This document shows, piece by piece, positions 56,888-59,800 of a stretch of 64,000 nt of DNA. Below the pieces are notes generated by a model, which worked only from the letters and a program-made list of their open reading frames with translations, was not told the origin of the DNA and ran no database searches. The DNA comes from Candidatus Saccharimonadota bacterium. GTDB lineage: Bacteria; Patescibacteriota; Saccharimonadia; Saccharimonadales; Saccharimonadaceae. The translations under genes and the position numbers were made by a program. How positions within the stretch are numbered: position 1 is the first letter of the stretch; the number at the start of each line of letters is the position of its first letter. The DNA lies in contig JAFWLS010000024.1 of assembly GCA_017514045.1 (NCBI GenBank), forward strand, positions 14,705 through 78,704. Reading direction: 5' to 3'.

Positions 56888-59800
56888 CTATCCTTCGTCT
56901 TCGCTATTGTGCTTGATTAGAGAGTAAGCGGCACCGGCGGCTACAACTGATGCCCCGACAGCCACAAGGCCAAAAGCCGTGGCAGTATCATTATTGCCGC
57001 CGCTAGTGCTACTTCCAGCAGTCTTAGTAACGCCAAGAGGATCGCTATAACTATCGTTAGAATCTGCAGATTTACCAGAGTCCTCAGAAGTATTGTCACT
57101 ATCAGAGGTACTGGTCGGTTCCGCATTCGTAGTATTTAGATTAGAGGGGCGATTGCTTAGCATCGATAATGAATTTGCGTTGTTTTGCCCAGAGGCATTA
57201 TTGTCATTATTGGCCCCTCCGCCCATTCCGCCAGTTACCGTCATTGCAGACCTGAATGCTTGTACTAAGTTCATGTCCGCATTCGGATTATGCATATACC
57301 AAGCAAGAATATTCGCATTAGTCTTTACGTAATTCATCATATAGACAAACTTTTTAGCATTGCTGCTACTTTTTAGTTTATAATACCTCGTTCTATCCCA
57401 TTGCCCAGACAGGTGAGTTAATTCATACTCTTGATATCTCGCCTCATCTGGAACACCGAGCAGCCCCTCAAGGAGGTACGCTACAGTACCGGTGCGGTCA
57501 GAACCAATACGACAGTGGAAGTAAATGTTCTTAGGGCTAGAGGTATTCGTAATGTCGGTCATGATGTGAGTCACAGCGAGCCAAGCTCTCATATAATTGC
57601 TCTCATTGTCTAATTCATCATTAGTATGATAATCGAAATCATAGTGAATCACTCGATTGTTGGCATAATCAGACAACTGCGTGTTACCCGAATACTCAGC
57701 TGGGTCACCAACATCATATTCTTTATTGATACCTAAATTCGTCAGCTCTGTCGCAGGCGCAGTCCAAAGTTTTTCACCACGGAAAAGCCTACCGTAAGCG
57801 AGCGTACCGGTCACAGTTTGGTTATTACTATCTGTGTAGGTTACTGGCAGACCACCAAGGTCACGCGTGTTACGTATTACTCCAGTATCAACCCAACGCG
57901 TATGATAGTTTGTATTTGACACTGCCGACACGTAACCATGTACCGTGGAATCATCGGCTCTTTCCCAGTAATAAGTCTGACCCGGTATCATATTGTGAAT
58001 AATACCACTACTTGCCTTAGCATATGTTACCTGTTCACCTTGTCTATTATTTAGATAAACATTCAGTGCGGCTCCGGTTTTAGTATCATAGGCATCCGGC
58101 TTACTACAATCAATCGAACCGCTTGACCAGTTAGTCGGGTTAGGTGTTGTGGTGGCTGTATCCTTATATGTAGGCACTAAACATCCATTCGCTTCAAAGC
58201 TGCTTTTGAGTCCAGTCCAGAATTGAACTTCAGACAATTCGCTCGTATTACCCCAAGTCGAATTGTTAATATTACTAATTGGTGTAGCCTCATTAAACGT
58301 ACTGATATTTATTGGGCTTTGATTCCAGGTGTTAATTAAAGTATTATAATCGCGAGTTGCTTCGTTTGATACATCAAACTCGACCGGTTCGTCAGACGAT
58401 TGATATTCATAATGTGCAACGTAAGTCTTGTTACCACTCGGGACAGTAGCGGCTGTTATTTGTACATTCGGCGTTACCGACTCATCGAACCAACCAACAA
58501 AAGTAAAATTAGAGTCAGGAGGTGTTGGAATAGGCAACGTTCCTACCGAGTCGTTAATCGTAATAGTGCGGCTCTCTTCCCCGGACTGCAATGATCCATG
58601 GTTGGCGTCAAACGTGATAACGTAGTCTGTCTGTGCTCCAAGCTTCACATACATATCAGTCATTTTTCCGACCAAAGGCCGCATCGGAGAGGTACCATTG
58701 GAGGCCGCAGCGCCACCAAACCAAACCTTAGTATTGAATTCGAAGTGTGTTTTATTAGTCACGTCCTCGTACGGTGTCCAAGCACCGCCATCTATCGAAT
58801 AATAAACCCTATAATAATCAACCCCTTGTTCGGTTTCTTTTCGCTTAACTAACTTCACGGTCTTGGTAGTTGAAGGGAAATTATTATATGTAAGTGAGGC
58901 GCTATCCCCCTTCCATCTTGAAGTAATTTCTATGTAGTTACTGGCAGAATAACGACGAATCACAAAACCAGGATAATTATTAGCACTATCTTCCTTCTTG
59001 AAGCTTACGAAAGTCGCCTGATTACCACCTTGATTAGAAGGAAGTTGGCTACTGGGGCTATACTCGGTAATTGTAAACCCAACTTCAAAATCCTTATCAT
59101 AGTTAGCAGCAGTAAACAACTGAATGGCAGTATCAATATAATATATGCTGCTACTAGTATTTCCACAATGAGTACCAGTCACTGCACTACCAGTAAACGT
59201 ACATTCATTGGTTTCGGCCCATACAATTGGAAAACTAGATGTATCTTCTTCCCATTTTGCGTAATAAGTGACATCAGCTGTTACTTGCTCTTCAGGATAC
59301 ACTTCTCTATAGAAAGTTCCATCATCCGTATACCAACCAAAGAATCTATAATTTGTCTTGCTTGCTGTCGGCAAAGTTCCTACTGGGTCTCCGTCATCTA
59401 CATCTCGAGTAGTGGAAGCACCGTTATCTAATGTGCCTCCATTGGCGTTAAATGTTACCCTATGCTGTATTGACCCCGCCTGCAACACGTCAACTTCAAT
59501 AGTTTTAGTTTGGCCAGAATTCGAACCAGTCATGATGATATTCGTTGTGCCTACGTTAACGCCGGTAATCACACCAGTTGTGGCGTCGACAGTGGCGATA
59601 GTATCATCGGCTGACGAGAATGTATACGGCTCCAATTCACTAGCGTTGCTTACTATTACAGTAATATGTTCACCTACCGGCACCGTTAAGTCGTTATTGG
59701 CGATTATTGCATGCGTCACATCTAGCAGCGTCGGTGTATATTTCTCGATTAACTTATATGGTACTACAATAGTCGGACGCACCATACTAGTTCCCGTACT

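Follow-up and report, generated by a model that had tools for sequence, protein, structure and literature searches.

Atypical lipid phosphatases (ALP) are defined by the P-loop signature HCXXGKDR[TA]G, in which the Lys at position 5 and the Asp at position 6 are strictly conserved (PMC3091653, PMC6409689). In PtpB of Mycobacterium tuberculosis (MptpB), a stand-alone effector of about 30 kDa that carries the Pfam domain Y_phosphatase3, Asp165 inside the P-loop is the essential catalytic acid, Lys164 is important in phosphoinositide binding, and a basic residue engineered at P-loop position 2 broadens activity to poly-phosphorylated inositides (PMC3091653). Pho16B, an exported Y_phosphatase3 enzyme from a soil metagenome, is a promiscuous phosphatase that also hydrolyses phytate, and the family thus includes promiscuous extracellular phosphomonoesterases (PMC6409689). 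Here we describe a Y_phosphatase3 domain in a different setting, close to the C-terminus of a giant predicted surface protein of 2,365 amino acids (aa) encoded in a Candidatus Saccharimonadota (Saccharibacteria) genome. The gene lies in a stretch of 64,000 nucleotides (nt) of contig JAFWLS010000024.1 (positions 14,705 to 78,704), which we refer to as the window and whose coordinates are used throughout. The parts of the gene that identify the enzyme are:

56888-63985, minus strand: whole gene of the giant surface protein, 2,365 aa, with the stop codon at 56888-56890 (open reading frame list and translation)

57896-58288, minus strand: pre-domain, a beta-sandwich, aa 1900-2030, directly upstream of the phosphatase and containing the motif NMIPGQTYYWE

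57236-57895, minus strand: cysteine phosphatase domain, aa 2031-2250 (Pfam, PDB profile search, Foldseek)

57284-57877, minus strand: Pfam Y_phosphatase3 match, aa 2037-2234

57488-57517, minus strand: P-loop HCRIGSDRTG, aa 2157-2166

The open reading frame (ORF) runs for 2,365 codons from a GTG at 63985 with an uninterrupted translation, although an ATG at 63964, seven codons 3' of the GTG, is the likelier start. Across the whole protein, Pfam recognised seven Flg_new repeats (E 1.3e-55), three Big_2 domains (E 5e-13) and a Y_phosphatase3 domain (E 4e-16), and NCBIfam agreed with Pfam on the repeats (TIGR02543 List_Bact_rpt, six copies). The original prediction, made from the sequence of the window, had proposed a PtpB-like phosphatase on the basis of three motifs. 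All of them are in frame: NTRDLGG at aa 2039-2045 (57851-57871), LFRGEKL at aa 2067-2073, and the P-loop itself. The interval it gave for the domain, 57236-57900 (aa 2029-2250), encloses the Pfam match, which extends over profile positions 6-209 of 240 and covers the P-loop. At 60.2 bits against a cut-off of 22.2, and with the E-value above, the presence of this domain is far beyond chance.

Profile and fold searches pointed to the same family. We aligned the module with 38 homologues (39 sequences; alignment A1) and searched PDB with the resulting profile. The protein tyrosine phosphatase (PTP) of Clostridioides difficile, 8DHI/8DHJ, was matched over the entire phosphatase domain (E 1.5e-20), and MptpB (1YWF/2OZ5) was matched at E 1.7e-13; the profile was needed, as phmmer with the domain sequence alone found nothing meaningful in PDB. 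An AlphaFold2 (AF2) model of aa 1895-2262 had a mean predicted local distance difference test (pLDDT) score of 76.7, with the phosphatase core mostly at 81-98. When this model was compared with PDB by Foldseek, the nearest folds were again 8DHI (top, E 1e-7) and MptpB 1YWF/2OZ5 (E 8e-6 to 3e-5), each with a probability of 1.00, and dual-specificity phosphatases ranked after them. The assignment to Y_phosphatase3 with a PtpB-like P-loop is thus borne out by Pfam, by the profile search and by the fold search. The C. difficile enzyme, the best solved relative by both sequence profile and fold, differs in being a 249-aa single domain with the canonical loop HCTAGKDRTG; we found no publication on its function.

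The phosphatase does not stand by itself within the module. In the AF2 model the pre-domain forms strands at model residues 61-128 (roughly aa 1955-2022) with pLDDT of about 78-92. It aligns in all homologues of A1, distant exported ones included, so that the conserved unit is a two-domain module made of a beta-sandwich and a phosphatase. Some distant relatives have a precomputed fn3 match on the pre-domain, which is likely to be FN3-like. Compared with MptpB, the window protein has in common the Y_phosphatase3 domain, the NxRD(L/V)GG and LFR motifs, the P-loop frame H-C-x-x-G-x-D-R-T-G, of which the catalytic Asp is a part, the fold (E 8e-6) and, by prediction, export. It differs in that its phosphatase is preceded by the beta-sandwich, ends a repeat protein of about 2,300 aa and is predicted to be tethered to the membrane in the source genome.

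We determined how widely this arrangement occurs. A scan of species-representative genomes yielded 20 loci, all in metagenome-assembled genomes of Saccharibacteria or Ca. Nanosyncoccus, and 11 of them are labelled with sheep, goat, yak or roe-deer gut sites. At 19 loci the ORF that contains the match is intact, has 1,618-2,377 codons and encodes a signal-like N-terminus; the twentieth is cut by a contig end. When 1.84 billion cluster representatives were searched exhaustively with a hidden Markov model, 19,775 matched at E<=1e-3; architectures were counted in the best 150 of these representatives, and taxonomy is known for the 20 close loci. Of these 150, 101 reach a length of 1,000 aa or more, and in 91 of the 101 the module is located at the C-terminus or close to it. 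The module ends no more than 15 residues from the C-terminus, that is without an anchor, in 81 of the 101, and is followed by a 60-140-aa tail like that of the window protein in 10. The anchored form is therefore a minority among long representatives (10/101) and a majority among close orthologues (14 of 20 loci). Four representatives that we inspected all combine Flg_new repeats with a C-terminal Y_phosphatase3 domain, three of them with Big_2 as well, and a fifth has three to four tandem phosphatase modules. Since the module ends a long protein in at least 91 of the best 150 representatives, the fusion reflects a large and diverse family rather than a singular event. The original prediction had regarded the fusion as unusual for a cysteine phosphatase, a view that has to be revised: it is common within its own family, and exported stand-alone relatives are also found, such as Pho16B (PMC6409689).

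A stand-alone small enzyme was suggested by homologues of 115-380 aa in our first search, a candidate that we rejected because these sequences are contig-end fragments or frameshifted pieces of giant genes. At one locus (L001, 8820-8950) a 1-nt deletion parts a 1,591-aa Flg_new/Big_2 ORF from a 246-aa phosphatase ORF, and at another (L002, 828-6350) the giant gene is broken into three. Such breaks mislead gene callers into reporting phosphatases that seem to stand alone; the splits may be sequencing errors or pseudogenisation.

The phosphatase stood out when conservation was compared along the protein. Mean identity to the window protein among the 19 full-length orthologues was 72.6% for the phosphatase, the highest of all regions, followed by 62.8% for the pre-domain, 43-56% for scaffold segments and 30% for the transmembrane segment and tail. 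Nonsynonymous divergence (dN) was likewise lower in the phosphatase (0.13-0.21) than in the scaffold (0.28-0.46). Synonymous divergence (dS) was saturated, and dN/dS was defined in few comparisons only, where it was 0.06-0.15. Judged by these comparisons, constraint is strongest on the phosphatase, and it is strongly supported that the module is a conserved C-terminal unit of giant Flg_new/Big_2 proteins of gut Saccharibacteria, which are predicted to be Sec-exported.

This conservation pattern bears on the idea that the domain is a polymorphic-toxin-like C-terminal effector delivered into competitor or host cells, as in contact-dependent inhibition (CDI), Rhs and MafB systems. An enzymatic domain at the extreme C-terminus of very long repeat proteins would fit such a system, and the Pfam family DSP-PTPase (PF22785), annotated in polymorphic toxin systems, weakly overlaps distant relatives. 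The window protein itself falls below a PF22785 match, however, and no part of the protein is better conserved than the C-terminal module, the opposite of the hypervariability expected. Nor is there a conserved small immunity gene downstream: orthologues are followed by housekeeping genes with RmuC-like or UvrB-like N-termini, and the window gene by one for a CARDB protein. In the source genome, moreover, the domain is followed by a membrane anchor. The toxin reading is largely refuted by the conservation pattern and the missing immunity gene, and we consider it very improbable.

We then considered the catalytic residues. The His, Cys, Gly, Asp, Arg and final Gly of the P-loop are invariant in the 39 aligned sequences of A1, as are the columns of an E-G-L-L-G helix that follows the loop and the Arg (Arg2200) of a TRYY motif at aa 2199-2202. 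HCxxGxDR is kept at all 20 related genomic loci, and H-C-x-x-G-[A/T/S]-D-R-T-G is found in 142 of 143 representatives of clusters at 50% identity. The Cys and Arg, whose loss in orthologues would have spoken against the original prediction, are thus kept in both sets. On the basis of MptpB mutagenesis (PMC3091653), Cys2158 is presumed to be the nucleophile, Asp2163 the general acid and Arg2164 the phosphate clamp. With these three residues in place, cysteine-phosphatase chemistry is predicted to be intact. The same residues make it hard to see the domain as a non-catalytic pseudophosphatase that mediates lectin-like adhesion to phosphorylated surface polymers. Substrate trapping by PTP folds is known, and the domain is embedded in an adhesin-like protein, yet pseudophosphatases typically lose the Cys or the Arg, whereas here the His, Cys, Asp and Arg are invariant in 142/143 representatives. 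A role in binding alone is therefore most unlikely.

Beyond the catalytic set, the loop departs from the ALP signature. It retains the Asp, Arg, Thr and Gly but has Ser2162 at position 5, in place of the Lys that is strictly kept in MptpB and other ALP enzymes, and Arg2159 at position 2. The substitution is general in the subfamily: among 159 P-loops from the 143 representatives, position 5 is Ala, Thr or Ser in 146, Arg in nine, Asn or Gln in two and Lys in none. Position 2 is basic in 43% of representatives. Replacement of the Lys by Ser, Ala or Thr across the subfamily weakens the inference that the substrate is a lipid, which the original prediction had raised. The motif HCxxG[A/T/S]DRTG marks a PtpB-like branch for which we found no biochemical characterisation in the literature.

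The location of the enzyme depends on both ends of the protein, which contain:

63854-63964, minus strand: predicted Sec signal peptide, aa 8-44, MRRQCEVRRGGLFVR-LLFGVLAMAFLPLVF-GSHTVYA followed by IATP (hydropathy heuristic)

56987-57235, minus strand: low-complexity linker rich in Ser, Asn, Thr and Gly, aa 2251-2333, 83 aa (composition)

57029-57040, minus strand: PLGV motif inside the linker, aa 2316-2319, 21 aa before the C-terminal helix

56891-56986, minus strand: Ala/Gly/Val-rich transmembrane helix, aa 2334-2358, and short Lys-then-acidic tail (HNSEDEG) (hydropathy)

Signal peptide and topology were called heuristically, from hydropathy and conserved AxA-type sites. The N-terminus has a positive n-region with four Arg, then a 15-aa hydrophobic core, LLFGVLAMAFLPLVF, and V-Y-A|I at -3/-1; equivalent AxA-like sites occur in the orthologues, where the mature N-terminus after them is conserved as (I/T)A(K/T)(Q/E)ST(L/I)S. 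A Kyte-Doolittle scan of the 2,365 residues found two hydrophobic segments only, at aa 16-46 and aa 2334-2358. With one of these signal-like and N-terminal and the other a C-terminal helix, the phosphatase domain is predicted to be extracytoplasmic and tethered by that helix. Hydropathy thus supports the originally predicted topology, exported and C-terminally anchored through an Asn/Ser/Gly-rich linker (Ser, Asn, Thr and Gly make up 56 of the 96 residues in aa 2241-2336). Given the anchor and the domain order, the N-terminal 2,000 or so residues would project outward. The phosphatase would be the membrane-proximal domain, with some 85 residues between it and the membrane of the epibiont itself, and would form the base of the protein, not the tip.

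The linker is poorly conserved, with 24% identity among the orthologues that have it, and 6 of the 20 loci are without it; the tails that orthologues carry are similar to that of the window protein. Of the 34 family members with such a tail, 31 have the consensus [S/E/A]-P-L-G-V-[S/T]-E at 13-31 aa before the helix. The PLGV motif matches none of the NCBIfam models of sorting signals. It may be a site of cleavage, release or sorting, and release might reconcile the anchored and anchor-less forms. Gram-positive bacteria have wall-anchored nucleases, 5'-nucleotidases and peptidases, which are metallo- or serine hydrolases with LPXTG signals. The window protein resembles them in carrying a catalytic domain on an Ig-like or repeat stalk with a C-terminal anchor. 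It differs in that its enzyme is a cysteine phosphatase and in that LPXTG is not present, the C-terminus consisting instead of PLGV, the helix and the Lys-then-acidic tail. Two other giant surface proteins of the window end differently. One (19145-25465, minus strand, 2,106 aa) has nine FctA/Spy0128-type isopeptide domains and a sub-threshold VWA_2 match, and the other (47524-52164, plus strand, 1,546 aa) has six Big_2 domains and DUF11. Both finish with an xPxTG-like motif (TPNTGG and TPDTGV, respectively), a hydrophobic segment and a basic tail; they are of the sortase type, unlike the phosphatase protein.

The outward part of the protein comprises the following elements:

63251-63853, minus strand: conserved N-terminal domain of the mature protein, aa 45-245, 43% mean identity to the 19 orthologues

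58289-63250, minus strand: repeat scaffold, aa 246-1899, made of Flg_new (Listeria-Bacteroides) repeats, Big_2 Ig-like domains, and domains A and B, twice each

within 58586-63070, minus strand: two copies of domain A, aa about 305-545 and about 1585-1800

within 58586-63070, minus strand: two copies of domain B, Cys-rich, aa about 758-985 and about 1203-1412

The N-terminal domain would be the distal end, provided that the C-terminus is membrane-anchored. The two copies of domain B are 38% identical to each other and have an invariant ERFYY motif. None of the N-terminal, A and B domains has a Pfam match at E<=5 (window segments) or E<=1 (orthologous segments). A large word-indexed protein search found no match for the N-terminal domain, profile searches found no PDB sequence relative of A or B, and an AF2 model of domain B made from the two window copies (pLDDT about 35) gave no usable fold.

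Saccharibacteria are ultrasmall bacteria that live on other bacteria. The lineage of the source organism consists of obligate epibionts (PMC11623550, PMC13622651), which lends some appeal to a contact-dependent effector directed at the host, the reading of the original prediction. The giant protein would bind the host bacterium and the phosphatase would dephosphorylate a lipid or protein on its surface, such as actinobacterial phosphatidylinositol-type lipids, thereby aiding attachment, feeding or evasion of defence. MptpB is a secreted host-directed phosphatase of phosphoinositides and proteins, and Listeria Lmo1800 is likewise (PMC3091653); the Flg_new and Big_2 scaffold is adhesin-like; and the basic residue at P-loop position 2 recalls the broadened inositide activity of engineered MptpB. 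However, the phosphoinositide-binding Lys of position 5 is never found in the subfamily, the anchored enzyme is membrane-proximal rather than distal, a geometry that does not favour contact action, and no host is known for the lineage. Most relatives, moreover, are without an anchor (81/101 long representatives), so that contact dependence is not a family trait. We therefore regard a contact-dependent, host-directed effector as unlikely, though as a serious rival all the same.

The explanation that we favour, by a little over even chances, is that the protein is an extracellular phosphomonoesterase acting on non-protein phosphoesters on or close to the cell surface, either envelope-associated or soluble organophosphates. 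By the established chemistry of the family, a thiophosphoryl intermediate would arise from attack of Cys2158 on the phosphomonoester, with the phosphate held by Arg2164 and the backbone of the P-loop, and Asp2163 would serve as the general acid, as Asp165 does in MptpB. Candidate substrates are envelope polymers or lipid head groups, and soluble inositol or sugar phosphates. The repeats and the uncharacterised domains would bring the enzyme to its substrate, in the manner of the binding modules of secreted glycoside hydrolases. The outcome would be release of phosphate or nutrients, or local remodelling of a surface, for an organism with minimal biosynthesis.

Weak hints of a non-protein or nutrient substrate come, by analogy, from the neighbours of small relatives, from the phytase activity of Pho16B and from the ruminant-gut origin of related loci. 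The small exported relatives (about 320-420 aa, on Bacteroidota-like metagenome contigs) consist of a signal peptide, the pre-domain and the phosphatase, as in the window module, and have a Lys-less P-loop, HC[R/V/I]WGADRTG; they differ in standing alone and are no more than 23-30% identical. One of them adjoins an alkaline phosphatase and a SusC/SusD pair, and another a KduI/IolB-family gene, an EIIC-type transporter and an Exo_endo_phos gene. On a 109-kb metagenome contig (L023, 3399-9179), three Y_phosphatase3 paralogues of 390, 424 and 392 aa are interleaved with a 637-aa Flg_new/Big_13 gene, an arrangement that may be the unfused counterpart of the giant fusion. The ruminant gut is a phytate-rich habitat, and PTP-like phytases of rumen bacteria, such as Selenomonas ruminantium PhyA, are exported CX5R cysteine phosphatases with a non-protein substrate. 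They share habitat, export and the CX5R motif with the window enzyme but belong to a different Pfam family, and their P-loop, HCEAGVGR, differs from that of the window enzyme; a search of the whole window protein gave no match to the PTPlike_phytase family at E<=1. Pho16B is closer, a Y_phosphatase3 enzyme that has a signal peptide and acts outside the cell, although it is a 38-kDa stand-alone protein that keeps the ALP Lys and is without repeat scaffold or anchor (PMC6409689).

Several points weigh against an extracellular phosphomonoesterase of this kind. The P-loop fits neither the lipid-phosphatase signature, being without Lys at position 5, nor the Pfam family of PTP-like phytases. The Foldseek template modelling (TM) scores of the module model are modest (0.26-0.55), because the query contains two domains and disordered stretches. 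The topology rests on hydropathy heuristics, and the relatives that supply the evidence on substrate context are distant (23-30% identity) and belong to other phyla. It is not obvious why an enzyme that simply scavenges should carry a scaffold of 2,000 aa, and the possibly ligand-binding domains of this scaffold suggest targeting to an insoluble or surface substrate. Finally, the anchored and anchor-less forms may behave differently. The role that we infer, that of an extracellular phosphomonoesterase, is the weakest step of the explanation. As to the purpose served, acquisition of nutrients or phosphate has a little less than an even chance and ranks somewhat above remodelling of the host envelope, which is possible though doubtful; some other role appears slightly less likely again.

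Two neighbouring genes deserve mention alongside the phosphatase gene:

55842-56831, minus strand: CARDB protein, 329 aa, 56 nt downstream of the phosphatase gene, with a signal-like N-terminus, a C-terminal helix and a strongly basic tail

45065-46528, plus strand: CotH-family kinase homologue, 487 aa (PF08757, E 1.3e-57), with an N-terminal hydrophobic segment at aa ~13-30

Synteny of the CARDB gene with the phosphatase gene does not extend to the orthologous loci. The CotH homologue is encoded about 10 kb away from the phosphatase, and its kinase-like domain is predicted to face outward, which makes an extracellular kinase/phosphatase pair conceivable. The phosphatase could act in cis on the epibiont's own envelope, maturing or trimming its phosphorylated wall polymers or reversing CotH-type extracellular phosphorylation, and the position of the anchored form next to its own membrane agrees with this. 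However, no CotH gene was found within 10 kb of the orthologues at any locus fetched, the anchor-less relatives are the majority, and there is neither a known precedent nor a substrate candidate; we judge such a cis-acting enzyme improbable. Somewhat less improbable, but still distinctly unlikely, is that the conserved purpose of the giant Saccharibacteria proteins is to deliver the phosphatase to the epibiont-host interface, either to remove phosphate from lipids or glycopolymers of the host envelope or to cycle extracellular phosphorylation together with an exported CotH-type kinase. If true, surface dephosphorylation would be a mechanistic step in attachment to, or feeding on, the host.

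Just upstream of the CotH gene, a GH97 glycoside hydrolase (36741-38750, plus strand) and a GT4/GT5-type glycosyltransferase followed by a GH57 enzyme (42613-45068, plus strand) form a carbohydrate-handling cluster in a genome that is otherwise rich in surface proteins. Between them lie three tandem paralogues (39554-42024, plus strand; 248, 268 and 276 aa), each with one G5 domain at the same position, aa 53-127. The window also encodes a CpsB/CapC-type tyrosine phosphatase of the PHP family (346-1050, plus strand; PF19567, E 4.8e-56), which is presumably cytoplasmic and is unrelated to the exported phosphatase. A 175-aa protein (18352-18879, plus strand) begins MQDIKSKKGFTIIEVVLVLAIAGLIF, an N-terminus that is type IV prepilin-like, and has no Pfam match at 1e-5. 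Saccharibacteria are known to interact with their hosts through type IV pili.

Taken as a whole, this is a known enzyme family in a form that is new in architecture and sequence: the module makes up the C-terminal part of a giant Flg_new/Big_2 protein and has a P-loop without the Lys, and this form is widespread in metagenomes. We found no paper on this architecture or on any Saccharibacteria surface phosphatase. How Saccharibacteria and other Patescibacteria recognise and exploit host bacteria is largely unsolved, the known factors being mainly type IV pili. Here, a widespread family among the largest surface proteins of Saccharibacteria ends in an enzyme that is under stronger constraint than its adhesin-like scaffold, which suggests that catalysis, and not binding alone, takes place at the surface. 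The hypothesis is testable, as the module is small enough for expression, its catalytic residues are obvious and genetic tools for Saccharibacteria exist. Should the substrate prove to be a component of the host envelope, the protein would stand for a way of parasitising other bacteria that is new; should it prove to be phytate or another soluble organophosphate, phosphorus cycling in the ruminant gut would gain an unrecognised player.

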